From the NCBI GenBank assembly GCA_963765495.1, contig CAVXWP010000016.1, positions 256,001 through 320,000 on the forward strand: DNA of 64,000 nucleotides. The letters are read 5' to 3'. Both the position numbers and the translations under genes were made by a program. Every line of letters starts with the position of its first letter. Positions within the stretch are counted from its first letter, which is position 1. The DNA comes from Blastocatellia bacterium. Its GTDB lineage: Bacteria; Acidobacteriota; Blastocatellia; UBA7656. Shown here piece after piece: positions 7,981 to 23,815 of this stretch. The notes under the pieces were generated by a model that was not told where the DNA came from, did not search any database, and worked only from the letters and a program-made list of their open reading frames with translations.

Positions 7981-8008
7981 ACGCACTCTTTTTCCGCGTC
8001 CCCGTTTG

Positions 8009-8046
8009 AAAAGGGCTTGCTCACGCAGGCCCTTTTTCTTTTGTTT
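8009..8046 (+). terminator. Rho-independent terminator
   Basis: AAAAGGGCTTGC-TCAC-GCAGGCCCTTTT hairpin followed by a T-rich tract downstream of the GWxTD gene. Confidence 0.75.
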
Positions 8047-8176
8047 CGACCGGAAATTCGAGCATCCCGAAATTAATATTCACCGGGCTGATGCAGTCGT
8101 ATGAATTTATCTTTCCGTTTCAGATTCATCTTGATATTATCTGTCACTAGCGTAGGTGCGACAGGCTAAAGGATCC

Positions 8177-9211
8177 ATGAAATTCTCAATCAGTAATCCA
8201 TTCACAGAAGACATGGCCGTTGATCTCGGCACGGTGTACACATTTATCTACACTCGTGGGCGAGGCCAGGTAGTAAACGAACCCTCTCTGGTAGCGATAG
8301 ACCGGGTCAGCGGCGAAGTCATCGCCGCAGGCAACGAAGCGCTCGAAATGCTCGGTCGCTCGCCCGAAGATGTAGAGGTCGCCTATCCGATGCGCGACGG
8401 GGTGGTAGCCGATTCCGAGCTTGCGCAGGTGATGCTTGGTAAATTCCTGCGCAAAGCGCGAGGCGGTCGCGCCTTCTTTTCACGTCGCATAATCATGAGC
8501 GTTCCTTCCGGCATCACTTCGGTCGAACGCTTTGCCATCCGGGAAGTAGTAAAAGGCATAGGCGTCAGCCGCGTATATCTGGTAGAAGAAGGGCTGGCCA
8601 CGGCGCTCGGAGCCAACCTGCCCATAGATCAAATGAAAGCCTCTATGGTCGTAGACATAGGCGGAGGGACTACCTCTATCGCCGTGATTGCCAATGCCGG
8701 TATCGTAGAGTCTGAAACGCTCAGAATCGGCGGATTAGACCTCGATCTCGCCATCACCGATTATATAAAGCATCATCACCACATACTGATAGGCGAGCGA
8801 ACGGCTGAGAGGTTGAAGATGGTGCTCGGTTCGGCTACCGATCCGGTCGAAAATCACAAGAGTGTGGTCAAGGGGCAGAATATCAATGAAGGCGGCCCGG
8901 AAGTGTCCGAGGTGGCTGCGATAGAGATTCACAAAGCCATAGACAGCGTCATAAAGCAGATGGTCGAAGCCATTCGACAGGTTCTCGAGCGCGTGCCGCC
9001 CGAGGTTGCAAGCGATATACACGACCGTGGATTGGTTCTGACGGGTGGAATGTCGCTGATGGCCGGCATGGATGAACGTATCAGCGCCGCTACGCGCCTG
9101 AAAGTTATTATCGCCGAAAGCCCGAAACAAACACTGGGGCAGGGCTTGATTGCGCTCTATGAAAACCCGCTCCTGCTTCGGCGGATCGCTCGCAATGTCG
9201 AATTGTCCTGA
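8177..9211 (+). CDS. mreB: MreB-family actin-like protein (stand-alone paralog)
   Basis: DMAVDLGT, NEPSLVA, PMRDGVVAD, VVDIGGGTT, IGERTAERLK, LVLTGG motifs. Start could also be GTG 8156. Confidence 0.85.
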   Translation: MKFSISNPFTEDMAVDLGTVYTFIYTRGRGQVVNEPSLVAIDRVSGEVIAAGNEALEMLGRSPEDVEVAYPMRDGVVADSELAQVMLGKFLRKARGGRAFFSRRIIMSVPSGITSVERFAIREVVKGIGVSRVYLVEEGLATALGANLPIDQMKASMVVDIGGGTTSIAVIANAGIVESETLRIGGLDLDLAITDYIKHHHHILIGERTAERLKMVLGSATDPVENHKSVVKGQNINEGGPEVSEVAAIEIHKAIDSVIKQMVEAIRQVLERVPPEVASDIHDRGLVLTGGMSLMAGMDERISAATRLKVIIAESPKQTLGQGLIALYENPLLLRRIARNVELS

Positions 9212-9321
9212 GCAGTAAACAGTAGGCAGTTACGGAGGTGGATACCTACTATTCATATATATACCCCGCGTTCTCTTTAGCAGTAGTCATCAGTTCAGCA
9301 TCAACTGCCTACTGCCTACTG
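9211..9321. repeat. CAGTAGG/CCTACTG heptamer palindromic element, copy 1
   Basis: CAGTAAACAGTAGGCAGT ... ACTGCCTACTGCCTACTG between convergent genes; a related element lies at 56826-56958. Confidence 0.6.
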
Positions 9322-11874
9322 TTCCTTCATCGTTTTTCCGGCCGCGATCAGGTTTGCCAGCACGCGATAAGCTCCCGCCTTACCCGCAAGCGCCTGCCTG
9401 CGCCAATCAAAACTCGTAAAGACGTAGGTACCTTCTCCAAATCGAGCAAACAACAGCCCTCCTCTTTGTGGATCATCTCCGGGATCGTTTGACTCAAGAA
9501 GCGAAACATATTCGCTCGCCCATGCTCCGGGGAGGTTTGTGGCCCGATCCGCGACCCAGCCCTCAAAATCTCCGGCTGAAATCTTGTTCGGTTTGTCGAA
9601 GAGCGGATGGTCTTCGACAAGGAGCTTCACAGGCGCAGTCTCAACGACGATTGGATTGTCTGATAATCTGATCAGAAAAGGCGCTGCCGGACGTTTTTCA
9701 AATACGAGATTCCAATCCTTCGGTTGTTGAGAAAGCATGATTACGTTTCCCCCGTGTTTTGCGTAATCAAGCAGGCATTCGTTGATCGTGGCGAGACGGG
9801 GCCAGGCCGTATAAGCGCGCTCGTCTATTATTACAGTGTCGAATCGAGCAAGACCCGCGCACTTGCTGTTTATTTGCCCGGCTGTCTGATCTCCGTTCCC
9901 GTGTTCGAATGTTTTGATTTCATCAATCGTCAACTCTTCGTGTTCGATGCCAAGCTCAGTAAGCGCGAGATCAAGCCAGCGGTCGAAGCCTCGAATGTAC
10001 CCGACTCTGAGATTTTCAGCGATTCTGGAATCAATGGCGCGGACAGGTATCTTCGCCGAACCAAGCGCATCGGGCGGGGCGGGTTTTTCGCGCCGGAATT
10101 CGAATAAGAGATCGGGCGCGAGCGGAGGCTTGAGGATCGGCAGCCGCAGCCGCAGCTTCACAGCGATCTCTTCATCCTCCTCGGTAAAGCGAATGTGAAC
10201 CGGCTCATAGCTGTCTTCGGTTATGGCCAGAGGAACTACCCAGAGCGCCCCGGCAAGCTCGCCCGGCGTCCGGTTGCGAACCCGCGCGATAAACTCGAAA
10301 TCGCGCGTCTCTGCCCAATCCTTTATTAGAGCAAATGGTATGGTCGAAATCTCTACCGCAGGGACAATTTCACATCTGGCCAGCGCGGGCAGAGTGAGGG
10401 TCGTCTGACCGAGACTAACCTCCGCAAAAGCGATCAGGCGGGCACCAAACGCACTTGCAGGCTGTGAACCCGGCAGGGCCGATGCCACCGGATAATAGTT
10501 CTCTTCATAGAGATGATCTGAATCAGGCACAGAGAGCGAAGCATCTTTCGGCACTTCATATTCAATCTCTTTTGTGACCGATGTTTGCGGAGCTACGCGA
10601 ATCACATCCGATGGTTTGAATGAAGGTTTCTGTTGCGAAGCAGGGAAAGATTCCGCTGCGTGAAAGATTACCGGCAATGACTGTTCGCTTGAATTGCGCA
10701 TATTAAGCCGGGCGGTGAATTTCTGGCCCGGCACGAGCGTGAGATCAGAGACAGTAATCTCAAAACTGATGCCGAGGGCTAGCGCGAGCGCCCGCTCAAG
10801 CTCTTCAATGTATCGGATCATGCGAAAGAATTCTTCGCCGTAACGATTATAAATATCCGAGGGCGAGCCTTCGGCGCGTTTCTCGATCAGTTTTTCCTTA
10901 AGCGCTTCAATCAATCGCTCGTCAAGCCCTATGGCTTCAAGCGAAGTCATATCGCCCACGTGAGGCGGCAAAATGGCGTGTGCTATGTTGTCGGGGAGTT
11001 TCAAGCCCTCGAACAACGTCTTTCCAAAAACGAATTTCTCATCCGAAGCCGAGCGCAAAAGTTTATAGTATATTTTCTCAGTATTCGGAGCATCCCTGTG
11101 CGCCCCGTATCCGAGAGACGCCAGCTGGCCGTAGGCCGTAATTGCCATCTGCGCGTAAGTGCTGCCGTGAACGTGATCATACTCGGTAAGGTCCACCAGA
11201 ACACCTACGGTAGATATATCTGATCTTTGAAATATGCGCCGCACCTGCCAGGGTTGAGAATCATTTCCCACAAAACGCTTCGGGTCGGCAGCCGCCTCAA
11301 AGGCCTCAAGATCAAGCCGCGCAAGAGCCTGATCCTGTCCATCGCCCGCCTCGCTGTCGTGGTTTGTGATGATAACATCCGGGCGCAATGATCTGATTGC
11401 GCGCACAAGTCTTTGGAGAGCCTCGTCGTGCCCCCAGATGCTGAAGGTCTCTTCGACCGACTGCGACTCTCCAAAGTCGCGCAGGTTTAGAAAATAAACA
11501 TCCGCCCCGACGACTCGCGCAGCGTCGAGCGTTTCACGCGTACGGGTAACTCCCGGATCTTCGTCCAGGTTGTGCTCGATCCAGAGTTGCCTGCCCTCCG
11601 CACGGGTCGCCAGAAGAATCACAACCCGAGCGCCCAGTTTTTTGTGATAGTAAGCCAGAGTGCCGTAATCCACATCATCGGGACGCGCAGCCACCGACAC
11701 AACCGTAAACGGATTGTTTAACTCCCTCAGGCTTTGATCGAGCAGCGCCAGGCCCCGACCATCAACAGTCGGTTCGTTTGCGCTGTCGCCCCCTGCGCAC
11801 GAAGCCACCACGCTACGAGGGAGAGCGCCGGTTAAAATGCAAAGCGTTGCCAGCAGTGACAGGGCTTGTCTCAT
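9316..11874 (-). CDS. PIG-L/LmbE-family protein with Ig-like and GATase-like C-terminal regions, exported
   Basis: Signal peptide; ARPDD, ATRAEG, DFGESQS...WGHDEALQRLVRAIRSLRPDVIIT N-terminal LmbE pattern; C-terminal HPLFDKPNKISAGDFEGW...GAYRVLANLI typical of long LmbE-like proteins. Confidence 0.85.
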   Translation of the reverse strand: MRQALSLLATLCILTGALPRSVVASCAGGDSANEPTVDGRGLALLDQSLRELNNPFTVVSVAARPDDVDYGTLAYYHKKLGARVVILLATRAEGRQLWIEHNLDEDPGVTRTRETLDAARVVGADVYFLNLRDFGESQSVEETFSIWGHDEALQRLVRAIRSLRPDVIITNHDSEAGDGQDQALARLDLEAFEAAADPKRFVGNDSQPWQVRRIFQRSDISTVGVLVDLTEYDHVHGSTYAQMAITAYGQLASLGYGAHRDAPNTEKIYYKLLRSASDEKFVFGKTLFEGLKLPDNIAHAILPPHVGDMTSLEAIGLDERLIEALKEKLIEKRAEGSPSDIYNRYGEEFFRMIRYIEELERALALALGISFEITVSDLTLVPGQKFTARLNMRNSSEQSLPVIFHAAESFPASQQKPSFKPSDVIRVAPQTSVTKEIEYEVPKDASLSVPDSDHLYEENYYPVASALPGSQPASAFGARLIAFAEVSLGQTTLTLPALARCEIVPAVEISTIPFALIKDWAETRDFEFIARVRNRTPGELAGALWVVPLAITEDSYEPVHIRFTEEDEEIAVKLRLRLPILKPPLAPDLLFEFRREKPAPPDALGSAKIPVRAIDSRIAENLRVGYIRGFDRWLDLALTELGIEHEELTIDEIKTFEHGNGDQTAGQINSKCAGLARFDTVIIDERAYTAWPRLATINECLLDYAKHGGNVIMLSQQPKDWNLVFEKRPAAPFLIRLSDNPIVVETAPVKLLVEDHPLFDKPNKISAGDFEGWVADRATNLPGAWASEYVSLLESNDPGDDPQRGGLLFARFGEGTYVFTSFDWRRQALAGKAGAYRVLANLIAAGKTMKEQ

Positions 11875-12084
11875 AATAGAACTATCCCAAGAACATAAAC
11901 GCCGATGACGCGCTCTGGGTTATTCTATCAAAAGCAATCAGCCGCCGCCTCAAATCACAAGCTCGCTTATAATCGTGTAGTTTCCTCTCGGGCGCGAGCT
12001 ATGGTAGGATTGCTGCCTGTTGGTGATTTCTTTAAAGCCCATGTGGAACCGAATAACTCAGGTCACGGACATAGATTATATTTG

Positions 12085-13950
12085 ATGCTTACCAAGTCTA
12101 AAGTTCCTGTTACAGTTGAAAAACCTCGGGCAACACGAAGTCTAAAAGCAAAGCTTGCCTTAACACTTTTGTGCGTCAGCCTATCGGCCATAGCCACGGT
12201 TCCCTTCTTTTTCATGGGCAAATACCCGGAGGGCAAGAGCGGCCCTATCTTTCGCATGCCCACTACTCACGACATGCATTTGCACCGCGAGCAGATGAAC
12301 TCATTTTATAACGGGCTACGGTCGGGCGAAATTTATCCGCGATGGGAAGAAGACACAAATCGAGGTTATGGAGCACCAACGACCAGTTATTATCCACCGG
12401 GAGTCTATTATCTGACATCCTTCTGTTACCTGATTTTGCGCGACTGGTTGCGCGCGCTACTCGGAACGCATCTGATACTGATGATAGCCTCCGCGGCAGC
12501 CATTTATGCCTACGCTCGTCAGGTAATGTCTCGCCGGGGCGCGGCGGTGGCGATGGCCGCCTACATATTTCTGCCCTATCATCTGATAGACCAGTATCAG
12601 CGCGGTGCTCTGGCAGAATTGACCGGATTTGTCTGGATGCCGCTCATGTTGCTGTTTGGCGAGCGCCTTTTCCGCGATTTCAGAAATGTTGCCCCGGAAG
12701 AAGAAGACCACCTGGAAACTACGGAAAAGGATATGGAATCGTATGGGTCGGCAAGACCCGGTTCCAGAAGTTTGTCGGACAGACTGCTCAATGCATCGGG
12801 GCTTGCGGTAAGTTACTCTGCGTTTGTATGGTCGCACCCACCGACCGCTTATCAATTCACGCTCACCTTCGCCATCTTTGTTCTCTTGTTTTTTCTTGTG
12901 CGCCGCGACTGGAAAGGCTTGCTCTACCTGGGGGGGGCGATGGCAGTTGGACTTGCATTATCGGCTTATTACCTTTACCCGGCAGCCATCGAACAGAATT
13001 TGATTCGCCACGAATATATAGCGCAAAGCTGGCCCTATCACGATAGTTATGTGTTCGTCTATTCCGAGCCTTATGCGACCATACATCGTGGTTTTTTTGC
13101 CTTGATTGACGGTACCTGGACCTTTAACGCCGTGCTTATCGTTGTAGCGGCGGGAGCAATTTTGCTGAAATCAAAATCAGTAAGCCTGTCTCTCAGACAA
13201 CACGCTTTGGTGTGGCTGGTTCTGGGGTGCTTCGCAAGCTTTATGATGACGAAATATTCTTATCCTCTAGGGCGTTTTATACCCGAGATAGAGATTGGTG
13301 TATTCTCGTGGCGTATGCTTGCCATAACAACCCTGATGCTTGCCCTGCTCGCAGGCGCTTTGATGCAAGCGGCGCTAAACGCTCGCCGTCAAGTGCGCAG
13401 GGCCGCCCGTATAGCCTTCACGTCTTTATCGCTATTTATAACTATCGGCAGTGTAATCTTCAGCGCGGCGGCCGTGGCAGCGCCTATGGCCACAATGCCG
13501 GCCTTCGTACGTTCGCTGGAGCATTGGAACGTGGCTACGATCCCAAGCACCGCGCCCGAAAACATAGAGGACTTGACCCGGGGCGATCAAGCCGAGCTTA
13601 CCTCGGGCAATGGTCGGGTTTCGATTGACCGCTGGGACCCGGAGCACCGACATCTATCGGTTGAACTGATCGCACCTGATCAGTTGCATATACGTACATT
13701 CAAATTCCCCGGCTGGACAGCTAATATTGACGGGCACCCCGCTGATATCCTCATGGGACAGCAATCAGGCGAGATAGTTCTCGATTTAGAGGCGGGCACC
13801 CATCAAATAACGCTGGATTTTCTCGACACACCGCCAAGGCGCGAAGCTCGATGGGTGACGATCTCTGCTTTTCTTTTTTTGATGTGTGTGGTTATACTCT
13901 CATTCGCAAGAAGAGAAACAAAAATAGAGAGGGAACGCACGACAATCTAG
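12085..13950 (+). CDS. Polytopic membrane protein, PTPS-related/YfhO-like GT-C glycosyltransferase
   Basis: THD...GEIYPRW...GYGAPTTSYYPP, PYHLIDQYQRGALAE and C-terminal FPGWTANIDG motifs; many TM segments. Start uncertain (ORF open from 11905). Confidence 0.85.
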   Translation: MLTKSKVPVTVEKPRATRSLKAKLALTLLCVSLSAIATVPFFFMGKYPEGKSGPIFRMPTTHDMHLHREQMNSFYNGLRSGEIYPRWEEDTNRGYGAPTTSYYPPGVYYLTSFCYLILRDWLRALLGTHLILMIASAAAIYAYARQVMSRRGAAVAMAAYIFLPYHLIDQYQRGALAELTGFVWMPLMLLFGERLFRDFRNVAPEEEDHLETTEKDMESYGSARPGSRSLSDRLLNASGLAVSYSAFVWSHPPTAYQFTLTFAIFVLLFFLVRRDWKGLLYLGGAMAVGLALSAYYLYPAAIEQNLIRHEYIAQSWPYHDSYVFVYSEPYATIHRGFFALIDGTWTFNAVLIVVAAGAILLKSKSVSLSLRQHALVWLVLGCFASFMMTKYSYPLGRFIPEIEIGVFSWRMLAITTLMLALLAGALMQAALNARRQVRRAARIAFTSLSLFITIGSVIFSAAAVAAPMATMPAFVRSLEHWNVATIPSTAPENIEDLTRGDQAELTSGNGRVSIDRWDPEHRHLSVELIAPDQLHIRTFKFPGWTANIDGHPADILMGQQSGEIVLDLEAGTHQITLDFLDTPPRREARWVTISAFLFLMCVVILSFARRETKIERERTTI

Positions 13951-14024
13951 TCCCCCCAGGTGTTTTAGGACTTATTGCGTGGGTTCCCTCCCGGTCGGCT
14001 AAAGGAGGAACCGGCTAACTGAGT

Positions 14025-14050
14025 ACCCGCCCCTTTAGCGGGCTTTTATA
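14025..14050 (+). terminator. Possible terminator hairpin
   Basis: CCCGC-CCCTTTA-GCGGG followed by CTTTTAT, downstream of the membrane protein gene. Confidence 0.45.
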
Positions 14051-14650
14051 ATTCGGCATTGCGACTGTCATCTGCGGCCCTGGAACGGGACAGTGATTGG
14101 GCGCACAGTTTGTTTCTCCTCTTCCAGAATCAGATCTCGAATTTTCAGGTCTCTATGACATAATCACTCTTGTTTGTAATCAATCGTATAGTGAATTAAT
14201 GTTCCGACTTGTCGCCGGCGCTATTGAGCGGTAACAGCCCCTATGATACAAAAGCACCTTGATCGGAAGAAAAACCACGCGCAACCATAATGCGTCGTTG
14301 CCAGCTCGTGTCAGTTTGGTTGGACCCGATTGCTGAACAATCTGTAAGCCGATTGTAAGCCCGTAGCCAACAACTGGCGTATAGATATGCTCAGGTGGTT
14401 GCGCGTGGAGCAGTTGAGTTTCCATCTGGGCAGGCGAGCCGCTCTCGACGCACGATTCCGGCAGGTCACAAGAGCGGGGTCGTGAGAACCTGTCGCTCCC
14501 GGTTTTACACGTGACCTGACGGTCAAAAAGTGTGGCATGGCTTACCACACAGACACGGTACAACGGGCCCTCTGGGCAGTTGAGTTTCCGATGCACCGAA
14601 CTTTTTATAGCATTACCAGTCATAAATATATATTATGGCAACCTTCAATA

Positions 14651-14696
14651 TATTGACAGACGCGAATATTATTACAAAACTTATCTCGTGTCAATA
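14651..14696. promoter_or_regulatory. Face-to-face overlapping sigma70 promoters / inverted repeat TATTGACA...TGTCAATA
   Basis: Minus strand: TTGACA (14694-14689)-N17-TAATAT (14671-14666). Plus strand: TTGACA (14653-14658) with a weaker -10. The context is AT-rich and upstream of the XRE gene. Confidence 0.65.
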
Positions 14697-14785
14697 ATTA
14701 TTTTTTAATAAACAATAAAATAATTTAAGCCGGTTATTTGAGCTTTGCCCAGACCACAACAAGTTATGCGAAAACAGGGAGAGAT

Positions 14786-15232
14786 ATGGACAAATCGAGC
14801 GAAAGAAGTTTGAGTCAGTACATCAGTCAGATTATGAATCTCAAAGGATTTTCAGCGGCCGATGTGGCCGAGCGTTCCGGCAAAGAGATAACAGCCGGAT
14901 ATGTGACCGGATTGATGAAGGGCACGGCTAAGAATCCTTCGGTGGAAAAGATAAACGCTCTGGCTGGCGGACTCGGCATAGACAATGTTGAGTTATTCCG
15001 AGCAGCTTGTAAGCTTCCGAGCGAACAGCAGGAGGGTAAACAGGTCGTAGACCCCTCTTACACGCTCGTGATACTGGAGTTAATGCGCAAGGTGGCGGTA
15101 GAGCCTGTTCTGGCGGAGATGCTTAATGAGATGGTCAGGCTATCGCCAGAGGAGCGTCTGGTCGTGCTCGATTCCTTGAGAGCGCTAAATAGAAATCGTC
15201 CCGTCTCAGGGAGGAGCAAAAAAAATGGTTAG
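14786..15232 (+). CDS. XRE-family helix-turn-helix transcriptional regulator
   Basis: LSQYISQIMNLKGFSAADVAERSG...ITAGYVTGLMKGTAKNPSVEKINALAGGLGI is a classic HTH_XRE; helical C-terminal domain; RBS GGGAGAG before ATG 14786. Confidence 0.88.
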   Translation: MDKSSERSLSQYISQIMNLKGFSAADVAERSGKEITAGYVTGLMKGTAKNPSVEKINALAGGLGIDNVELFRAACKLPSEQQEGKQVVDPSYTLVILELMRKVAVEPVLAEMLNEMVRLSPEERLVVLDSLRALNRNRPVSGRSKKNG

Positions 15233-16374
15233 TTCTTCATTTTTCTTTTTTGAGCGATCTTTTCGACCGCCGACAACATGGCGCTCAAATCATTTTTTGT
15301 AAGCGACTCATCTGAGATCAACTGTATGATCTTCAGCATCATTTGTCTGTGGTCCAGTTCCTGTGAGGAGCTTTGATTCTGGGCCGGGCTGTTTGATTCT
15401 TTTGCCATCTTCTTTTTCCACTCCAGATAATCTAGTATACGCCCCGGTTTTTGAGGGGAGCCAATACCTGTTTCTCCTGGACCAAAGGAGTTGACGAAAT
15501 TCTGCGCCGGTAAACGCAAAATATTATTCACCTCGAAATCTCTCTGACTTAAAGCGACCACTGAATGAGAGGCGCGTCGTCCCTTACAGATGATTTCATT
15601 GCGCGTCTCGTGCCACTCAGGATACGCATTTGCGTAAGGTGAAGCAAGAGCTATCTTTGAGGCACTGAACGCTTCTTCGAGCCGTCCCACTTCGGCAAGC
15701 TCCACGGCAAGGCTGTTGAGGTAATCATAATAGACGTGCGGGTGCCTGCGGCCAACAGCGCAAACGAGTGGAAACATCTTCTCAAGATGGATAAGAGCCC
15801 CCTCATGATCTTCGTCCATGCTTTTGAGGACCGCTATCATCTTCTGTGTATGAACCGCAACTAACGGGTCTCGTCCCCAATCACTTACAGCAGCCCTGTT
15901 CGCCTGTAAGTAAAGTGCCAAAGCGGATTTATAGTCTCCAGAATCAAATTTTATAGCTCCTAAAGACATAAGAGCTTTAGTCCTGTACTTAGCCGGGGCT
16001 TTTTCTATGACATACTCATACAATCTGCCTGCTTGAGAAAATTCCATCCTTCTACCCAAATATAATGCCTGATAATAAAGACCTATACTTCGATGCTGAT
16101 GAGATAAATCTGCATTTAATAAATCTGCATTTAATAGGAAATGACTTATCTGTCCTACGGTTTCCATCTGACGCCGTTCGTAGCTGTATTCGGCCAAAGC
16201 AAGCAGGTTATCTCCCAAAGTGCTGGATACGCGTGTTGTCCAGGCCGCTTTAGTGAGTGCCATAACTAATTGCTGATAAAATCCACCCTGGCTAATTGTT
16301 TTTTGTGCGTCATCAACCTGAACTATGGAGGAACTATCTGTGAGTAAAAAACTTGTCTTCGCAACGGTTTGCAT
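15229..16374 (-). CDS. Cytoplasmic TPR-repeat protein of unknown function
   Basis: TPR-like helices (ALMSLGAIKFDSGDYKSALALYLQA; YLNSLAVELAEVGRLEEAFSASKIAL); no signal peptide. Alternative start ATG 16263. Confidence 0.8.
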   Translation of the reverse strand: MQTVAKTSFLLTDSSSIVQVDDAQKTISQGGFYQQLVMALTKAAWTTRVSSTLGDNLLALAEYSYERRQMETVGQISHFLLNADLLNADLSHQHRSIGLYYQALYLGRRMEFSQAGRLYEYVIEKAPAKYRTKALMSLGAIKFDSGDYKSALALYLQANRAAVSDWGRDPLVAVHTQKMIAVLKSMDEDHEGALIHLEKMFPLVCAVGRRHPHVYYDYLNSLAVELAEVGRLEEAFSASKIALASPYANAYPEWHETRNEIICKGRRASHSVVALSQRDFEVNNILRLPAQNFVNSFGPGETGIGSPQKPGRILDYLEWKKKMAKESNSPAQNQSSSQELDHRQMMLKIIQLISDESLTKNDLSAMLSAVEKIAQKRKMKN

Positions 16375-16654
16375 ACTGGCCCTCCCAATTTGGTTTTCAC
16401 CTTCTCAAGGTAAAAACCAAACAAACGTGTTGCCCTTTACTACAACCGCATTAGCCGGGCATACAACTAGCGGTAACTGGTGCGATTGCGGCACACCGGA
16501 CTGCATAGATGGAAACTCTTCTAACATTACCTCGGATAAGGATAATACCACTCTTGATCAAAATGGTACTCCGGGCAGCGTATCTGATTCTTTCGGTTCA
16601 GAAGCGCTGCTGTTTGAGCTTGCTTTTATGATCTGGGCCAGGGTTCGCGTTTAG
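16340..16654 (+). CDS. Small exported protein/peptide precursor with CxCx4C motif and hydrophobic-basic C-terminus
   Basis: GGAGG RBS then GTG 16340; KK plus hydrophobic signal (LVFATVCILALPIWF); ALA-GHTTSGNWCDCGTPDC; tail EALLFELAFMIWARVRV. Confidence 0.7.
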   Translation: MSKKLVFATVCILALPIWFSPSQGKNQTNVLPFTTTALAGHTTSGNWCDCGTPDCIDGNSSNITSDKDNTTLDQNGTPGSVSDSFGSEALLFELAFMIWARVRV

Positions 16655-16845
16655 GCTTTAAGCCTGTTCTAGCTCGACTTAAATTACTCCGATTGTGTAA
16701 GCCGCCGGGATGCATGACGGCTCAGGGGACTTGTACCTCTCACAGAGCGAGTATTGTACTATAGTTTACTCTCGATTGCACCGGAAAATATCCGGCAGCA
16801 TCAACATTTTGAAGATGAAAGTGAACCTGAGGCGACCGCCAATAG

Positions 16846-16936
16846 CCCACGGATTTGACGAGCGAGGCGGATTTACATTGATCTGACCCAAATGATCCAA
16901 CCTGTATTGACCCGTTTAATCCGTGTCATCCGTGGC
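16846..16936. repeat. CCACGGAT...ATCCGTGG palindromic element, copy 1
   Basis: CCACGGATTTGACG...ATCCGTGTCATCCGTGG; a related element lies at 52904-52987. Confidence 0.7.
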
Positions 16937-17025
16937 CTGTAAATGTCGCTCTCATCTACGTTTCAGAGATAACGGGTGGACCCCGAAAAATCGCTCTTGC
17001 CTACAATCGCCCGGGGGCCTCCTGC

Positions 17026-17054
17026 TTGACAGTCCCGCCTAAGTATCTGACAAT
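17026..17054 (+). promoter_or_regulatory. Putative sigma70 promoter
   Basis: TTGACA-N17-GACAAT about 40 nt upstream of ATG 17096 (RBS GGAGG). Confidence 0.6.
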
Positions 17055-17095
17055 GCGATCATTGAGATAAGCCTTGCAACCCCCTTGGAGGATCT

Positions 17096-18571
17096 ATGCC
17101 ACATAATTTTATAAACCTGGCGGTCCTGGAGGAGATCAGAGAAGCGGGAGATTATGATAAGCTCGCCGCCGAGTTGTCTGATGATTGGCGCGATATGCCT
17201 GATTTCGAAGATCGCGCTATAAGGTTACGTATGCTTGCCGCAGAGATAGCCGGACGCTCCAGCCGCCTCGATGAAATGGAAGAAGCACTCGCTCCTTACC
17301 TGAACAACGTCAATAGAGTGCCTTTCGGGCTGGCTGCTCGCGTGTTGTTGATGCTTGCGCTTTATCATTATCGTAGAACCGAGCCGAGTGAGGCATTGAA
17401 ACTCGCCATCCAGGCAAGAGACATCGCCTCCGTGCGCGAGGATGAGTTCGTTATGGCCGAGGCGGTACAGTTGGAGGGACAGTCTCTCTGGTCTTTGGAA
17501 AGATGGGACGAGGCGGCCAGATCATTTGAGAAAGCGATCTCCGTTTATGGTTCTCAATGTCGCCCTTACAGGCTTGGGCTGGCTTACACATGCCTCGGCG
17601 GCGTATTGAATCGAATGGGCAATGTAGAAGAAGGCCGCATCTCGCTCGAACGCGGCATCAAGATATTGCTCAAGTGCCCGGATGATTACAATCTCGCCGT
17701 GGCAAGAGTCAATGTGGCGCAGGCGCTCAATATTATCGGCGAACACGAAACGGCGCTGAAGTATCTGCTCTTTGCCCACGAGGCATTTGACCACATAGGT
17801 CATAGTCAGTACCAATACCTGACGCTCAACAGTATCGCCGCCACTCTGGTTTCTCTTAAAGAATACGACCGGGCCGAAGAGTATGTAACTCGCGCGCTGG
17901 AAAAGGGGGTCGTAGCGCGCAGCACGCAAATAGCTTCCAATTACGAGATAAAAGCCAGGCTCTGTCTGGCACGTCGCGAATGGGACAGGGCAGAGAGGGC
18001 GCTGCTTGTGGCGCTCGAAATTGCCGATCAGGCTAACAGCCTGTCGCAGAAGGCCGAGGCCCGGCGAACCCTCGGCAGGCTCTACGTAGCGCAGGATCGC
18101 CAGGAGCAGGCGGCTCGCGCCTTGTGGCAGGCACTCGATATTGCTCAGGACCTTCGCGCATCGCTTCTTGAGCTTGAGGTCAAGGCGCTGCTCGCTCAGG
18201 CGCTGTGTATGGCAAACCCCGTCGAGGCGTGCAGACTGCTCTCGGATGTTGAAACCTCGCTTGGCGAGCGCCCGTTGCCGGATTTGAGGAAGGACGCCCA
18301 CGCCGCGCGCAAATGCATCAACTCGCTCGATCAAGAGCACTTCTTCATACTTTCCGATGCCGGGATTCCACTGCTTGCAGAGGCCAAAGTCGGATTGCTC
18401 AAATGGCTCTGGTCGCGGGCGCTCTACAAAGCAAGGGGAAACGCGCGCGATGCGGCTACAATACTCGGCGTCACCCCAACCTATATTCGCAAACTGACAA
18501 AAGTCATTCCGCGCGATCTATTGCGACCGGGGAGAAAACGGCCAAAGAAGAGAAAGGCGCAAGCGCAGTGA
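17096..18571 (+). CDS. TPR-repeat protein with C-terminal Fis-type HTH (putative regulator)
   Basis: Many MalT-like TPRs; C-terminal EAKVGLLKWLWSRALYKARGNARDAATILGVTPTYIRKL resembles HTH_8; basic tail. Confidence 0.82.
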   Translation: MPHNFINLAVLEEIREAGDYDKLAAELSDDWRDMPDFEDRAIRLRMLAAEIAGRSSRLDEMEEALAPYLNNVNRVPFGLAARVLLMLALYHYRRTEPSEALKLAIQARDIASVREDEFVMAEAVQLEGQSLWSLERWDEAARSFEKAISVYGSQCRPYRLGLAYTCLGGVLNRMGNVEEGRISLERGIKILLKCPDDYNLAVARVNVAQALNIIGEHETALKYLLFAHEAFDHIGHSQYQYLTLNSIAATLVSLKEYDRAEEYVTRALEKGVVARSTQIASNYEIKARLCLARREWDRAERALLVALEIADQANSLSQKAEARRTLGRLYVAQDRQEQAARALWQALDIAQDLRASLLELEVKALLAQALCMANPVEACRLLSDVETSLGERPLPDLRKDAHAARKCINSLDQEHFFILSDAGIPLLAEAKVGLLKWLWSRALYKARGNARDAATILGVTPTYIRKLTKVIPRDLLRPGRKRPKKRKAQAQ

Positions 18572-18708
18572 TCACGTGATGCGTGATTGGTGATGCGTAA
18601 TTCGTGATTAAGCAGGCTTACAAATAGTCTTTTTACAGACAGACTCTCCAAAAGTCACGCATCACCAATCACTCATTACCAATTACTCATTACCAATTAC
18701 TCATCACG
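18568..18708. repeat. GTGATGC/ATCACGC palindromic element, copy 2, with additional CATTACCAATTACT tandem units
   Basis: Same arm units as 3451-3553; located between convergent genes. Confidence 0.75.
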
Positions 18709-18714
18709 CAGGAT

Positions 18715-19875
18715 TTAGACGCCCCCGGAAATCCACAGAGGATCGGTTTGAGCGGCGAGGTCTTTCTTTATCGCTTGAAAACATCGGGCAAATTCGCGGC
18801 CTTCTTCACTGGTGAGCGCGGGCGTACCCTCTGCCACTCTATCCGATTCGATAACGCCTTCGAGTTTGAGCGCATGTTTTATGCACGCGATGGTCTTATC
18901 GACCGGACGCCCTGCTGATTTGAAAACGCAGGCGGCGCTGAACCGGTCAAAGGCCCGTTTGTAAATTGCCATCAATCGGTCGTCGCCTGCGAAACAGGCG
19001 CGCCAGGCACGCTGCCACTCTCGCGGCAAAACATTTGCCGGCCCCGACACCACGCCTACGGGCAACTCGTTGTGCAGCAGATAACGATTCCAGTATTCGC
19101 GCACGCGGCCCGCCAATCCTTCTTCAAGCCTGAAGACCTGAAACATCAACATGGCGTTGCCTATGTAAACACCAAACCCTTCTCTGGTTTTGTAATGCAG
19201 CGCGCCTCTTGTGTAATTGCCCAGAACGCGGCGAGAGGCGCTGACCTTAAGCCCGTAGATAAACGGCAGACGACTGAGCCTTTTTACTTCGCGGGTACGA
19301 ATATGAGACCTGCGCGGGTCGGCGGCTATATCGGCATTGTCATATAAAAAGAGCGGAATCCACCCGCCCCTGCGATCAAACAGATCGCTCACCTCGCGTT
19401 GAAAGAAAGAGACTATATCGCCAAGATCGCCGATAGAGAGCGGCGCTACGACGGCCGCATCCGCTCCGGCTTCAATCGCGCATTCCAGATTTGCGAGCGT
19501 CTCGCTTCTGGTCGAGGCTGTCACGCCCGTCCAGGCTTCGAGGGGCCGTTGGCCGCATCCGGCAAGCTCTTGATTTATGCGCGCGATCTCGTCCGCTTCG
19601 ATCTCTATAAGCCGCTGTCGCTCGCCGTTCGAGATGCGGTTCCACTCGCCGGTTGTGCCTATGCCGAATATTATGTCAGCGCCCGAGGACTGCTGCGCGT
19701 TGTAGCGAAAAACGCGGCGCTGCTCGTCTTCAACCACGCGCCCTGCGCCGTCAAGCACCGTGATTGATGGAATGCTCAGACCGCTTCGCACGCGATAGCT
19801 CCAGCCAGCCCTCGGCGAGGCGTCAGGCTCTTTATCCGGCTTTTCGGCGTCGATCTGTTTATAGACGGATTCCAT
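18715..19875 (-). CDS. Dihydrodipicolinate synthase (DHDPS/NAL)-family protein
   Basis: IFGIGTTGEW, AGADAAVVAP, LFLYDN, and GLKVS (Schiff-base Lys) motifs. Confidence 0.82.
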   Translation of the reverse strand: MESVYKQIDAEKPDKEPDASPRAGWSYRVRSGLSIPSITVLDGAGRVVEDEQRRVFRYNAQQSSGADIIFGIGTTGEWNRISNGERQRLIEIEADEIARINQELAGCGQRPLEAWTGVTASTRSETLANLECAIEAGADAAVVAPLSIGDLGDIVSFFQREVSDLFDRRGGWIPLFLYDNADIAADPRRSHIRTREVKRLSRLPFIYGLKVSASRRVLGNYTRGALHYKTREGFGVYIGNAMLMFQVFRLEEGLAGRVREYWNRYLLHNELPVGVVSGPANVLPREWQRAWRACFAGDDRLMAIYKRAFDRFSAACVFKSAGRPVDKTIACIKHALKLEGVIESDRVAEGTPALTSEEGREFARCFQAIKKDLAAQTDPLWISGGV

Positions 19876-19904
19876 CGCTTCGGGCCCGGTCAGATTCGCT
19901 CAAG

Positions 19905-20282
19905 TCAGATTCGCTCAAGATCGGCGACTGTTCTTTCGTTTTGCGTATTGCCTGTGTTCAGCGTGCTCCTGGGTTCGAGCAACAAAACATGCGCTTCTTC
20001 TTCGGCCACAGGCAGATGTTCGACGCCTCTGGGGATGATGACGAACTCGCCTTCTTCCAGATTTATGTCACGGTCGCGCAACTTGATTTGCAACCTGCCT
20101 TTCACGACCAGAAAAAGCTCGTCTTCCTGCTCGTGATGATGCCAGACGAATTCGCCTTTGAGCTTTACAAGCTTGACGAGCGAATCGTTTATTTCGCCTG
20201 CTATCTTCGGACTCCAGTAATCCTGAAACAGACCGAGTTTTTCAGAGAGATTCACTTTTTCAATCGTCTGTCTTTCCATCAT
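19905..20282 (-). CDS. Cupin domain protein
   Basis: YWSPKIAGEIN, KGEFVWHHHEQEDELF, IPRGVEHLP. Start at MMERQ; the upstream ORF extension crosses a repeat. Confidence 0.9.
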   Translation of the reverse strand: MMERQTIEKVNLSEKLGLFQDYWSPKIAGEINDSLVKLVKLKGEFVWHHHEQEDELFLVVKGRLQIKLRDRDINLEEGEFVIIPRGVEHLPVAEEEAHVLLLEPRSTLNTGNTQNERTVADLERI

Positions 20283-20560
20283 CGAACCGCCTTGAATGAT
20301 TATCTTTATCGGAGCGTAGGTGGAGCGCGGCTCGATTGTCAAGGCACCGCCCCCTGAGATTTGAGATTTGAGATTCGAGATTCGAGATCTCATATGAGTG
20401 GGTGGGAATGAGAGTAACCTATGGCTTGCGTTGATTGCCTCCGAGCCGTTGTGTATAGTTTTTCTAAGGCAGCATTTGAGGACGCTTACCCGCTGCGTCT
20501 GTGGCTTCACGTAAGACCACCTGGGAAATCATAAATAATCCTGATTGAGGAACCTGTGTC

Positions 20561-22447
20561 ATGGAAAAACCTGCGAAAATAAATCAAAGCATAATTCAAT
20601 CTCTGGAAGCGATGGGCAACAAACTGCGCATAGACTCGATCCTTGCCACGTCCGAGGCCGGGTCGGGACATCCCACTTCCTGTATGTCGGCAGCCGATCT
20701 GGTTGCCGCGATATTTTTTTACGCGATGCGCTACGATGTGGCCAATCCTAAGAACCCCGTCAATGACCGCTTTGTGTTATCAAAGGGGCATGCCGCGCCT
20801 TTGCTTTACGCCGCGTGGGCCGAAGGCGGCGCGTTTGCGGTAGACTTGCTCAAGACCTTGCGCGAATTCGGGAGCGACCTCGAAGGGCATCCGACGCCTC
20901 GACTGCCATGGGTCGAAGTCGCAACCGGCTCGCTTGGTCAGGGGCTTTCCTACGGGCTTGGCATGGCTATCAACAGCAAATATCTCGACGAGATTGATAA
21001 CCGCATATTCGTTTTAATGGGCGACGGCGAGGCGGCCGAAGGTTCGGTCTGGGAAGCCGCAGAGCTTGCCGCTTACTATAAACTCAATAACCTCACAGCC
21101 CTGGTCGACGTTAACGGTCTGGGCCAGAGCCAGCGCACAATGTACGGCCACGACACAGAAGTTTATCGCCGTCGCTTTGAGGCGTTTGGCTGGCACGCCT
21201 TAGCGATAGACGGTCACGACTGCCTACAGATCGTCAACGCGCTCGATGAAGTGATGGCCGTAAAAGACAGACCTTCGGTCATCGTGGCCGCTACAAAAAA
21301 AGGGAAGGGCGTTTCGTTTGTCGAAGACAAGAACGGCTGGCACGGTAAGGCATTCAAGAAGGGTGAAGAGATGGAGCGCGCGATTGCCGAGCTTGAAGGC
21401 GTGGCGCAAAATACCGGCGGGCTGAAAATCTCGCCGCCCGAAGATCGAAGCAGTCGGGCCGAAACGAATCCCGAGACCGCTACAAAAAAGGAGAACTTCA
21501 AAAGCGAATACAAAGAAGGGCAGGAGGTCGCTACACGCCAGGTCTACGGCGAGGCGCTTGCCCGGCTCGGGGACGAAAACCCGCTCGTCGTGGCCGTTGA
21601 CGGCGATACGAAGAATTCGACTTACTCGATAAAATTCATGGAGGCGCACGAAGGCCGCTTCTTCGAATGTTTCATCGCCGAGCAGAACATGATAGGCACA
21701 GCCGTGGGGCTTGCCGCGATGGGCAAGATTCCTTTTGCCTCGACCTTTGCCTGTTTCCTCACCCGCGCATACGATCAAATCCGAATGGCTGCCGTCTCGC
21801 AATCGAATTTAAAACTTTGCGGCTCGCACTCGGGCGTTTCGATAGGCGAAGACGGCCCCTCGCAAATGGGGCTTGAAGACCTTGCGATGATGCGCGCCAT
21901 CATAGGCTCGTCGGTCATCTATCCGAGCGATGCCGTATCGGCAGAACACGCCGTCAGGCTTGCAGCCGCTCATCGCGGAATCGTCTATATTCGAACGAGC
22001 CGCCCAAAGACGCCCGTGATCTATTCGGGCGATGAGGAATTCAAACTGGGGCAGGCAAAGATAATCAGACAAAGCGAAGGCGATAAGATAACCATAGTCG
22101 GAGCGGGCATCACTTTGTTTGAAGCGCTTGCGGCATACGAGGAGCTTAAGTCCGAAGGAATACCTGTCAGAATCATAGACATTTTTTCAGTAAAGCCGAT
22201 AGACGAAGATACGCTTCGCGAGGCCGGGAGCGAGACCGACAACCTGATACTTACTGTCGAAGATCATTCATCGGAAGGCGGGATAGGCGACGCCGTGGCA
22301 AGCGCCGTAGCTCCTGCCGGTATTCGCGTCCACAAGCTTGCGGTCTCGGAGGTGCCCCGGTCGGGCAAACCCGAAGAGTTGCTTGCCGCCTACGGCATTG
22401 ATCGTAAGGCGATTATCGATAAGGTGAAATCCTTGCTCGAAAAATAA
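20561..22447 (+). CDS. tkt: Transketolase
   Basis: SGHPTSCMS, DRFVLSKGHAAP, GSLGQG, GDGE...EGSVWEA (TPP motif), FIAEQNM, GEDGPSQM. Confidence 0.96.
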   Translation: MEKPAKINQSIIQSLEAMGNKLRIDSILATSEAGSGHPTSCMSAADLVAAIFFYAMRYDVANPKNPVNDRFVLSKGHAAPLLYAAWAEGGAFAVDLLKTLREFGSDLEGHPTPRLPWVEVATGSLGQGLSYGLGMAINSKYLDEIDNRIFVLMGDGEAAEGSVWEAAELAAYYKLNNLTALVDVNGLGQSQRTMYGHDTEVYRRRFEAFGWHALAIDGHDCLQIVNALDEVMAVKDRPSVIVAATKKGKGVSFVEDKNGWHGKAFKKGEEMERAIAELEGVAQNTGGLKISPPEDRSSRAETNPETATKKENFKSEYKEGQEVATRQVYGEALARLGDENPLVVAVDGDTKNSTYSIKFMEAHEGRFFECFIAEQNMIGTAVGLAAMGKIPFASTFACFLTRAYDQIRMAAVSQSNLKLCGSHSGVSIGEDGPSQMGLEDLAMMRAIIGSSVIYPSDAVSAEHAVRLAAAHRGIVYIRTSRPKTPVIYSGDEEFKLGQAKIIRQSEGDKITIVGAGITLFEALAAYEELKSEGIPVRIIDIFSVKPIDEDTLREAGSETDNLILTVEDHSSEGGIGDAVASAVAPAGIRVHKLAVSEVPRSGKPEELLAAYGIDRKAIIDKVKSLLEK

Positions 22448-22451
22448 AGAC

Positions 22452-22530
22452 TTTAACAGGATTGACAGGATTCAGGAGGATTTAGAAAAATCATGTTGAA
22501 TCGCCTTGAATCCTGTTAATCCTGTCAAAA
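22452..22530. repeat. ACAGGATT/AATCCTGT palindromic element, copy 1 (may act as terminator)
   Basis: TTAACAGGATTGACAGGATT ... AATCCTGTTAATCCTGTCAAAAAA; a related element lies at 33362-33492. Confidence 0.75.
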
Positions 22531-22673
22531 AAGATCTGAGGTCATGCTCTTGTGCACATATCTCCGCTTCGGGTGATTTCGGATTGCCGATTTTGGCTCG
22601 CTGGTATAAATTGTTGGCGCACACGGCTGTGACGAATTGAGCTTACATTCCTAAACAAGGCGGCAACAAATGA

Positions 22674-23729
22674 ATGGTGAAAAAGTGGTCGGCCAAGATC
22701 GACACACTACTTGAGCCTCTATTGTTGGAGGCCAGTGACGAAGAGGCTGACAAGCTCCTCTTAAGCCTGATCACCCTCCATGCCGATCCTGTGATCAAGG
22801 GCATCATTCGCTATAAACTCCATCTCAGTTCTCATCACGCGGACGGGCGATCTGAGACTGATGACGTTTATCAGGATGTGTTGCTGCAATTACTGGCGGA
22901 ATTGCAGCAACTTCGCAAACAGCCCGACGAGCATCCGATTACTGATGTGCGAGGGATGGCGGCCGTCATCGCGCATCGGACCTGTTCCCGCTGGATGCGC
23001 CGCCAATTTCCAGAACGGCACGCGCTCAAAAACCGACTTCAATACCTGCTGACGCGGCAGGCGGGTTTCGCGCTCTGGCAGGACGAGGAGAGAAAACTCG
23101 TGGCTGGTTTTGCCGTGTGGCAGGGACAAAAGAAAGCTGTGTCAGCGGCGCGACCCGGTCAACTGTCAGATGACGAGGGGTTGCGGGCACACATACGAAT
23201 GCTCAAAAGCGGCAGACAGCAAGAGTTGGGCGACGCCCTGGCCGCGATTTTCAATCACCTCGGCAGCCCCGTTGAATTCGATGAACTGGTGAGCGCCCTG
23301 GCCGCGCTGCTGGGAATAAGAGATCAGCCTATTGAATCGATCTCTGAGGACGAAGACGCCGTTGCGTTTCAAACCGCTGCCGGAGGGCCAGACCCGGCAT
23401 GGCAGGTCGAAAAACGAATCTTTTTGCAAAGGCTTTGGGAAGAGTTGCAACAGCTTCCTTCAAACCAGCGCGCGGCGCTGTTGCTTAACCTGAAAGACGC
23501 TGAGGGGCGCGGTTGTATTGCACTGTTCCCCGCGACGGGGATCGCGACTCTGCGCCAACTGGCAGACGCGCTCGAGATGAACGCGGAGAGTTTTGCCCAG
23601 TTGTGGAATGATTTACCGATTGAGGACGCGAGAATAGCTGAACTGCTGGGGCTGACCAGACAGCAGGTGATCAACGCGCGTAAATCGGGGCGTGAACGGT
23701 TGACGCGTCGTTTGAAAGGGTTTATTTAA
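22674..23729 (+). CDS. Atypical ECF-type sigma-70 factor with large internal insertion
   Basis: Region-2-like DDVYQDVLLQLL; region-4-like LWEELQQLPSNQRAALLL...IAELLGLTRQQVINARKSGRERL; immediately upstream of a zinc-finger anti-sigma. Confidence 0.8.
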   Translation: MVKKWSAKIDTLLEPLLLEASDEEADKLLLSLITLHADPVIKGIIRYKLHLSSHHADGRSETDDVYQDVLLQLLAELQQLRKQPDEHPITDVRGMAAVIAHRTCSRWMRRQFPERHALKNRLQYLLTRQAGFALWQDEERKLVAGFAVWQGQKKAVSAARPGQLSDDEGLRAHIRMLKSGRQQELGDALAAIFNHLGSPVEFDELVSALAALLGIRDQPIESISEDEDAVAFQTAAGGPDPAWQVEKRIFLQRLWEELQQLPSNQRAALLLNLKDAEGRGCIALFPATGIATLRQLADALEMNAESFAQLWNDLPIEDARIAELLGLTRQQVINARKSGRERLTRRLKGFI

Positions 23730-23739
23730 ACGTCGGTGC

Positions 23740-23765
23740 TAATAATCGGTGTCTTTCGTCAACTT
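23740..23765 (+). promoter_or_regulatory. Bipartite motif TAATA-N12-CGTCAACTT (candidate ECF promoter), copy 1
   Basis: Same spacing and sequence recur at 25358-25383 and 31656-31681. Confidence 0.5.
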
Positions 23766-23815
23766 ATTCATGTGAATAGAAAGCCGGAATCCGGCCTGAG
23801 GGGATTATAAGAGAC

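Follow-up and report, generated by a model that had tools for sequence, protein, structure and literature searches.

Gene organization of the cassette

The locus described here lies in a 64,000-nt stretch of DNA from a Blastocatellia bacterium (GCA_963765495.1, contig CAVXWP010000016.1). This whole stretch is called the window, and all positions are given in window numbering. The cassette consists of three interlocked genes: an XRE-family regulator gene, a convergent gene for a protein with a tetratricopeptide repeat (TPR) fold, and a small open reading frame (ORF), divergent from the TPR gene, whose product is predicted to be exported (Table 1). A preliminary description of the window had placed these genes in an AT-richer island, and this is what a windowed count gives, with a G+C content of 0.43-0.49 across 14250-16999 against 0.50-0.60 on either side.

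Start and stop codons were assigned from sequence motifs and family alignments. For the small ORF the most likely start is GTG 16340, 6 nt past GGAGGA (16328-16333), and its Shine-Dalgarno sequence is antisense to the TPR codons for a conserved Ser-Ser (S16 is nearly invariant in the TPR alignment). The start of the TPR gene, ATG 16374, is preceded by GGGAGG, and its Met is invariant in 30/30 aligned homologues. Because these are the two starts, the coding regions overlap head-to-head by 35 nt, which is closer than had been proposed. At the other end, the stop codons of the XRE and TPR genes share four nucleotides, exactly the tail-to-tail overlap reported earlier. For the XRE gene, the family alignment points to ATG 14786 and a product of 148 aa; the longest ORF, from TTG 14738, would encode 164 aa.

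Table 1. Features of the cassette in window numbering
Feature	Position	Strand	Basis or remark
XRE-family regulator gene	14786..15232	+	longest ORF 14738..15232
TPR-fold protein gene	15229..16374	-	ORF, 381 codons
Small exported-protein gene (predicted)	16340..16654	+	104 aa; longest ORF 16325..16654
XRE/TPR convergent stop-codon overlap, 4 nt	15229..15232		ORF coordinates and sequence
TPR/small-ORF head-to-head start overlap, 35 nt	16340..16374		sequence reading
TPR C-terminal helical extension, residues 342-380	15235..15351	-	predicted helices; co-occurs with XRE gene
Gly-His plus Cys motif, residues 40-55	16457..16504	+	alignment of 57 members
C-terminal hydrophobic stretch and Trp-x-Arg-x-Arg-type basic tail of small ORF	16589..16651	+	alignment
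Inverted repeat, 15-nt arms, 3-nt spacer	16389..16421		93% complementary
AT-rich leader upstream of XRE gene	14600..14785		G+C 0.426 for 14500-14999

Coding status of the small ORF

Related loci were fetched from GTDB species genomes with the TPR alignment, giving a set of 80, of which 78 are labelled Blastocatellia or Acidobacteriota. The other two (L021 and L067) are labelled “uncultured Clostridia bacterium”; their cassette proteins group with Blastocatellia copies, and the label probably reflects a misassigned bin. The small ORF was found by tblastn in 57/80 loci. When the strand upstream of the TPR gene was read in the remaining 23, 13 were seen to carry intact short variants (69-89 aa), two carried broken copies (L049, truncated; L063, frameshifted) and four carried remnants (L032, L033, L036 and L038); in L057, L058, L072 and L083 no small ORF was present upstream of the TPR gene. 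A recognisable small ORF occurs in 70/80 loci and is divergent from the TPR gene in 68 of these 70, so that the conserved divergent pairing proposed for other genomes is borne out. L039 differs in that the TPR gene comes first and the small gene follows it in the same orientation, which keeps the linkage but not the overlap. Of the 80 loci, 61 passed a stringent filter that required a signal, Gly-His/Arg...CxC, a hydrophobic-basic end and a divergent position.

A codon alignment was built from 57 of 60 copies, leaving out L084 (internal stop) and L067 and L076 (cut by contig ends). Differences at the three codon positions numbered 63519/50815/89110, the third position being the most variable. 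The ratio of non-synonymous to synonymous differences (pN/pS) was 0.46 for the His/Cys part, 0.44 for the tail and 0.80 for the spacer between them, values that understate constraint, as synonymous sites are near saturation. The spacer is the variable segment for which the preliminary description had proposed to look. The other two frames contain 169 and 243 stops in 5569 codons, and a Shine-Dalgarno-like motif lies ahead of 51/57 starts. These features argue that the small ORF is a real, conserved coding gene. Two of the outcomes that were to overturn the original proposal did not occur: the trio is found together at other loci, and conservation of the small ORF comes with a coding signature.

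The genome of the window itself holds two full small-ORF paralogues (at C1 and C8; E 1e-22 and 3e-21), each divergent from a TPR paralogue, and a degenerate small ORF at C9 that has lost the Cys motif and the tail (C9:145457-145735). The TPR gene at C8 is broken into two ORFs (C8:215616-216753); the C8 and C9 paralogues (loci L009 and L010) are decaying.

Anatomy of the small protein

Family members share one order of parts: a basic N-terminus, a hydrophobic core, a His/Cys motif, a polar spacer and a hydrophobic-basic tail. In the window copy the predicted signal peptide covers residues 1 to about 24 (to Ala39 if the cut falls before Gly-His), the motif residues 40-55, the spacer residues 56-83 and the tail residues 84-104. 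Both the length of about 104 aa and the His/Cys string given in the preliminary description are recovered when translation starts at GTG 16340. The signal peptide was called with charge and hydropathy heuristics, from a basic n-region, a hydrophobic core with a Kyte-Doolittle hydropathy (KD) of 2.49 and A-x-A-type sites. The motif consists of Ala-Gly-His, then C-x-C-G and usually a further C-x-C-D-P-G-E. Among 57 aligned members, A39, G40 and C48 are invariant, and H41, G45, C50, C55, W99 and R101 are kept in at least 90%. Because short-type variants place Gly-His directly after the ...F-A end of the signal peptide, the alignment suggests that the mature protein begins with Gly-His; an A-x-A/G-H cut fits the long variants too. 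The polar spacer (25-45 residues) is conserved within subgroups only. Toward the C-terminus follow small residues, 12-16 hydrophobic residues, a Trp and a short basic end, in the family as a whole likely a membrane anchor. Lengths range from 69 to 117 aa in the fetched loci.

The preliminary description had recognised no characterised family for either the TPR protein or the small protein, and this stands, with neither passing a Pfam or NCBIfam cut-off. For the small protein, no match was found in Pfam, NCBIfam (E≤0.1) or PADLOC. A profile search of 1.84 billion representatives gave 296 matches at E≤1e-3, and for ten clusters whose names were looked up, every name given was “hypothetical protein”.

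The tripartite C-terminus, with a small-residue motif, a hydrophobic helix and a basic cluster, is like that of sorting signals. On that likeness the small protein could be read as carrying a C-terminal sorting signal in the style of PEP-CTERM or GlyGly-CTERM, or as the precursor of a ribosomally synthesized and post-translationally modified peptide, with the TPR protein serving its maturation; the TPR protein also has weak NCBIfam matches to TPR proteins associated with such peptides (FxSxx system, E 1.9e-4, 20 bits against a cut-off of 300). We consider this highly improbable. The sorting-domain models of Pfam and NCBIfam gave no match at E≤0.1. Sorting signals are carried by a wide variety of proteins, and a profile of the tail, run against 96482 six-frame ORFs of the window's own genome, matched three, all family members (next E 0.26); because of this, the tail is not a general sorting signal. 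The 150 small-protein matches listed are all 69-126 aa, none fused to larger domains, and clustering of the ORFs at the loci found no sortase-like, protease or modifying-enzyme gene recurrent beside the cassette.

The TPR protein

The TPR protein (381 aa) falls below every Pfam and NCBIfam cut-off, with TPR_12 at 22.4 against 30.1. Its AlphaFold2 model (mean predicted local distance difference test score, pLDDT, of 75.9) has a confident TPR core at residues 30-268 that forms a superhelix. Residues 1-24 are poorly modelled, 269-336 form a disordered linker, and helices at 342-353 and 360-380 make up a C-terminal extension. Foldseek matched the model to 103 PDB chains at E≤0.001, all TPR proteins, with PlcR-PapR at rank 6 and Rap-pLS20 with Phr* at rank 21 amid generic TPRs. 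The protein has no Pfam or NCBIfam match at E≤0.1 to the Rap, NprR, PlcR, PrgX, AimR or Rgg families, and the ESM Atlas returned generic TPR clusters only.

The highest mean KD over 19 residues is 0.81, and because no hydrophobic segment is present the TPR protein is read as cytoplasmic. No DNA-binding domain was found with Pfam or in the AlphaFold2 model. Homologues numbered 319 at E≤1e-3. When fused helix-turn-helix (HTH)-TPR forms were sought, just two longer relatives (670 and 1020 aa) appeared, with no DNA-binding Pfam domain on record, which is weak evidence that such fusions are absent from the family. Complex prediction for the TPR protein with residues 40-104 of the small protein, run without controls, scored 0.28 and 0.13 (mark 0.32). 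The window copy of the TPR gene also contains an exact 15-nt tandem duplication (16104-16133, minus strand), which yields a five-residue repeat insert at about residues 81-90 that is absent from 29 aligned homologues.

The XRE regulator

The regulator belongs to the XRE/Cro-C1 family, with an HTH_3-type helix-turn-helix that scores 24.3 bits against the Pfam cut-off of 23 (33.2 bits for the L072 homologue). Its AlphaFold2 model (pLDDT 82.2; helices within 9-74 and 90-136) shows an N-terminal HTH, a three-helix C-domain and a basic tail. Foldseek matches include an RghR model, SinR/SinI, DdrO, restriction-modification C-proteins and the CapH N-domain, and the fold superposes on the N-domains of SinR, C-protein and DdrO with a root-mean-square deviation of 1.5-2.5. 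In PADLOC only a weak capH match (E 3.7e-4) and control-protein matches were found. The highest 19-residue mean KD is 1.23, without a hydrophobic window. Repressors of the SinR, DdrO, RghR and CapH types are controlled by a partner protein, and the model reads as a two-domain repressor of this kind.

Variation among related cassettes

Over all loci, only three ORF clusters recur widely, those of the TPR gene (79), the small ORF (60) and the XRE gene (38); all others are variable. Among the 39 loci whose TPR match extends to the first residues, 29 have the 35-nt start overlap; the 4-nt stop overlap is found in 20 loci besides the window (convergent XRE gene within 400 nt). A convergent XRE gene follows the TPR gene in 36/80 loci.

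Using profiles, 73 loci could be evaluated for the TPR C-terminal extension and the XRE gene: both were present in 32, only the extension in 14, only the XRE gene in four and neither in 23. These rows are related, and the table should be taken as an association, not a statistic. Because the presence of the XRE gene tracks the extension, we propose that the TPR protein acts on the XRE protein. The co-occurrence of the XRE gene that the preliminary description expected is seen in 32/46 evaluable extension-type loci; it does not extend to short-type cassettes, which have no recognisable DNA-binding gene. A third type of cassette (13 loci) has an N-terminally different TPR protein, a short small-protein variant, an XRE gene and then a Crp-like regulator. 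Some genomes carry two small-protein genes in tandem about 200 nt apart (G448:C31:406640-407524 and G416:C530:7120-7968).

Distribution and divergence

The small-protein profile matches 2/401 genomes across the phylum (the window's own genome and one of the same family) and 50/58 genomes within the order. In the GTDB family of the window, 49/52 other genomes are positive, with 1-17 matches each; in the sister family, 0/5 are. The range of the cassette is a single GTDB family of Blastocatellia. More than 250 small-protein copies were seen in the 50 positive genomes. Between the window and locus L020, identity is 39% for the TPR protein, 30% for the XRE protein and 32% for the small protein, compared with 71% for the neighbouring 491-aa TPR-HTH gene. 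The L020 cassette lies on the other side of that gene than in the window. From these comparisons the cassette appears to diverge faster than its surroundings or to be swapped among paralogues. Paralogue expansion and fast divergence are also seen in the Rap-Phr and Rgg-SHP families.

Many copies, some of them decaying, could also mark a cassette that is selfish or protective, akin to toxin-antitoxin or defence systems. In that case the small protein, hydrophobic and in the membrane, would do harm in excess, the TPR protein would neutralise or chaperone it, the XRE protein would autoregulate, and the antisense overlaps would act as in type I loci. The split C8 TPR gene, the degenerate C9 small ORF, the L063 frameshift and the L084 internal stop fit such a history, as does a small AT-richer island inside housekeeping genes whose flanks differ between copies. 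XRE regulators are common in loci of this sort, and the capH match, though weak, points the same way. Set against these are the lack of a PADLOC match for the TPR protein or the small ORF, and a cleavable signal peptide and extracytoplasmic His/Cys motif that are unlike known small membrane toxins. In addition, no integrase or transposase was found in the seven neighbour clusters scanned with Pfam (chosen among the 25 most recurrent). We regard this explanation as distinctly improbable. The AT-richness is slight in the family at large: modules are AT-richer than their flanks in 35/47 loci, with a median G+C of 0.529 against 0.545.

Comparison with known systems

In pLS20, the Rap TPR protein binds the HTH repressor Rco directly, and an exported, processed Phr* peptide releases it (PMC7430634). 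Both that system and the cassette have three separate products: an HTH repressor; a TPR protein that is cytoplasmic and has no DNA-binding domain; and, encoded beside the TPR gene, a small protein exported by Sec (PMC7430634), as is predicted for the cassette. The two differ in that no sequence relationship is detectable, the host is a diderm Acidobacteriota lineage, and in the cassette overlapping coding regions on opposite strands interlock the genes. In place of a 44-aa pre-pro-peptide processed to a C-terminal pentapeptide, the cassette encodes a 69-117-aa protein with a His/Cys motif and an anchor-like C-terminus. The effector-binding part of Rap is N-terminal, whereas the XRE-linked part of the cassette TPR protein is C-terminal. 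A further TPR protein and peptide, RapI-PhrI, act on ImmR of ICEBs1. The preliminary description had suggested a TPR sensor and an HTH split into two proteins; the genes are indeed separate, although in pLS20, the closest precedent, they are separate already, so that a split fusion need not be assumed.

The cassette also resembles RRNPP pairs (Rap-Phr, NprR-NprX, PlcR-PapR, PrgX-PrgQ, AimR-AimP, Rgg-SHP), in which a TPR receptor adjoins the gene of an exported peptide and many divergent paralogues occur; unlike these pairs in general, its HTH is a separate gene. Divergent, overlapping transcription is known in prgQ/prgX and some rgg/shp pairs. The five-point computational signature of RRNPP systems in PMC10075063 asks for a small propeptide, secreted by Sec (or PptAB), whose gene is a direct neighbour of that for a receptor of 250-500 aa with TPRs. 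The TPR protein, with 381 aa and modelled TPRs, falls within the receptor range, and the genes adjoin; secretion was called by heuristics. The small protein, with 104 aa in the window and 69-117 aa across the family, is at or above the upper end of the 10-100 aa that RRNPP_detector allows for propeptides (PMC10075063). The suggestion of an RRNPP analogue made in the preliminary description is upheld as to receptor size, TPRs and adjacency; no sequence homology to known receptor families was found, and the small protein is long and anchor-like.

The two-domain XRE protein is akin to those of SinR-SinI, DdrO-IrrE and CapH-CapP, consistent with its Foldseek matches. The partner in those systems is a small antagonist or a metalloprotease; in the cassette it would be a TPR protein.

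RRNPP systems are framed as Firmicutes systems in PMC10075063, whose text has no mention of Acidobacteri*, diderm or non-Firmicutes; supplementary files, possibly listing candidates, were outside this search. None of the literature searched joins RRNPP with Acidobacteri*, and a search for Blastocatellia with quorum sensing and peptide gave unrelated papers only.

Proposed function

We consider the cassette a candidate split Rap/Rco/Phr-like signalling unit with a logic like that of the pLS20 switch, a reading that we put forward tentatively, at somewhat less than an even chance. The TPR protein offers no more than a scaffold for ligand binding, and its gene is strictly linked to the small ORF, so that the two products probably work together. 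The small gene would give a Sec-exported pre-protein; removal of the signal peptide would leave a product, probably beginning with Gly-His, with its His/Cys motif outside the cytoplasmic membrane. In typical members a subfamily-specific polar spacer would follow, then a single membrane helix and a basic tail of 3-5 residues inside. This mini-protein, or a fragment released from it, would serve as cognate ligand for the cytoplasmic TPR protein whose gene faces its own head-to-head. The TPR protein, through its C-terminal helical extension, would control the two-domain XRE repressor as an anti-repressor, and the XRE protein would set transcription of the cassette and perhaps of other genes. Going by geometry alone, the overlapping starts and stops would make TPR transcription antisense to both partners and may favour switch-like behaviour. 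Signalling could operate by fragment release or by trans-membrane tethering.

Several observations weigh against such signalling. With its conserved hydrophobic helix and basic tail, the small protein looks closer to a membrane anchor than to a free pheromone, and it is long for a pro-peptide in the window (104 aa) as in the family (69-117 aa). We know of no described RRNPP pro-peptide that ends in a membrane-holding hydrophobic-basic segment. The His/Cys motif and the tail cannot encode paralogue specificity because paralogues within one genome share them; the spacer alone varies. The window copy is itself atypical, being without the fourth Cys and the Pro-Gly-Glu found in most relatives. Its tail, described earlier as hydrophobic and basic, fits that description in the family alignment; the window copy itself is weakly hydrophobic, has two Glu, and in no 15-residue window reaches a KD of 1.5. 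The window small ORF may be a decaying or shifted member. The likeness of the TPR model to RRNPP receptors is no better in Foldseek than its likeness to kinesin light chain or LGN TPRs, and a PDB sequence-profile search matched only designed consensus TPRs, SYF1 and kinesin light chain. As to the proposed contact between the TPR and XRE proteins, 14/46 extension-bearing TPR genes have no nearby XRE gene, and the window's own genome has stand-alone XRE paralogues at C7 and C9. A SinI/SinR-like kinship between the TPR C-terminal helices and the XRE C-domain was tried and rejected as not significant (hhalign E 0.021, probability 2%). Finally, in 17 loci the gene that comes after a short TPR gene (about 345 aa), in the same orientation, is not an XRE gene but an unrelated ORF of some 150 aa. 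Our estimate stays below even because the anchor-like C-terminus and the paralogue-invariant motifs oppose a simple pheromone.

The ∼150-aa protein is helical with basic ends and always follows a short-type TPR gene (L047-L090 type loci); all three short-type paralogues of the window's own genome carry it (C1:471516-472043, C8:215034-215552 and C9:146688-147332). It has no Pfam match at E≤0.05 (one member searched) and no PADLOC or PHROG match, and it (cluster c3) is related to neither the TPR extension nor the XRE C-domain. It is likely a functional counterpart of the TPR extension plus XRE.

The same anchor-like tail is more easily reconciled with a protein that stays in the envelope than with a signal that diffuses. 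The small protein might accordingly be regulated cargo, for example a membrane-tethered periplasmic metal- or thiol-binding factor, controlled by TPR and XRE proteins that sense another cue. An N-terminal Gly-His with three to four Cys close by could plausibly bind metal or take part in redox chemistry, all paralogues have the conserved parts in common, and an XRE regulator beside its own target is the commonest arrangement. We nevertheless find it rather unlikely, since up to 17 copies per genome and fast divergence would be odd for a housekeeping envelope factor. Short-type cassettes, moreover, keep the pair of TPR gene and small ORF without a recognisable DNA-binding gene, and the TPR protein, having no DNA-binding domain, must act with some ligand or partner, for which the small ORF is the only universal neighbour. 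A more specific form of the signalling reading, which we likewise think unlikely, is a diderm mini-protein system in which a tethered His/Cys ligand, cleaved or acting via its C-terminal tail, would signal through the TPR receptor to the XRE protein. It would offer up to 17 orthogonal channels per genome, made bistable by the overlaps.

Cytoplasmic TPR receptors that detect ribosomally made peptides are generally seen as typical of Firmicutes and of the mobile elements of these bacteria. If the more specific form just described is true, the cassette would mark the first case of RRNPP-like communication or self-recognition outside Gram-positives, with a new kind of pro-signal. An independently evolved cassette of analogous structure in Acidobacteriota from soil would extend peptide communication beyond its known range and would give a genetic handle on social or regulatory behaviour in a dominant, poorly cultured soil lineage. 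Whatever its function, the cassette is a clean case of a three-gene family locked by conserved coding overlaps on both strands. No member of the family (TPR protein, small protein, and XRE protein or ∼150-aa ORF) has been characterised, and an experiment on one copy would annotate hundreds of genes.

Other features of the window

Surrounding genes are housekeeping genes (TatC, MreB, transketolase and a PIG-L-domain protein), and a gene for a glycosyltransferase-like membrane protein also lies close to the cassette. No tRNA was found in 8000-24000, and Rfam gave no match in 13800-17200 at E≤0.1. Sequencing runs listed for 14500-17000 included no RNA data set, only three soil-metagenome DNA runs from a single study. 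The 835 nt (13951-14785) that separate the XRE gene from the glycosyltransferase-like gene are without a convincing ORF and occur in single copy in the genome; a 147-aa ORF at 14180-14623, upstream of the XRE gene, has no Pfam match. Sigma-70-like consensus matches numbered seven in the region against 3.6 ± 2.0 in shuffles, four of the seven at 14632-14698; as consensus matches only, they are uninformative for this phylum.

The inverted repeat listed in Table 1 lies within the small ORF, 15-47 nt upstream of the TPR start. Weaker counterparts (8-9 matches) occur at the same place in L009, L016 and L030 only, and none was found in the other loci tested. For want of such conservation the repeat was rejected as a family operator; an operator or hairpin specific to the window copy is possible.

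Directly after the small ORF, a gene at 17096-18571 (plus strand) encodes the 491-aa protein, with TPR_12 repeats (70 bits) and an HTH-like C-terminal end. It adjoins the cassette in four loci, in reversed orientation in L020, and may be a further regulator outside the core cassette. A 430-aa protein encoded at 23816-25108 (plus strand) combines a zf-HC2 anti-sigma-type zinc finger with a C-terminal TPR and is unrelated to the cassette.

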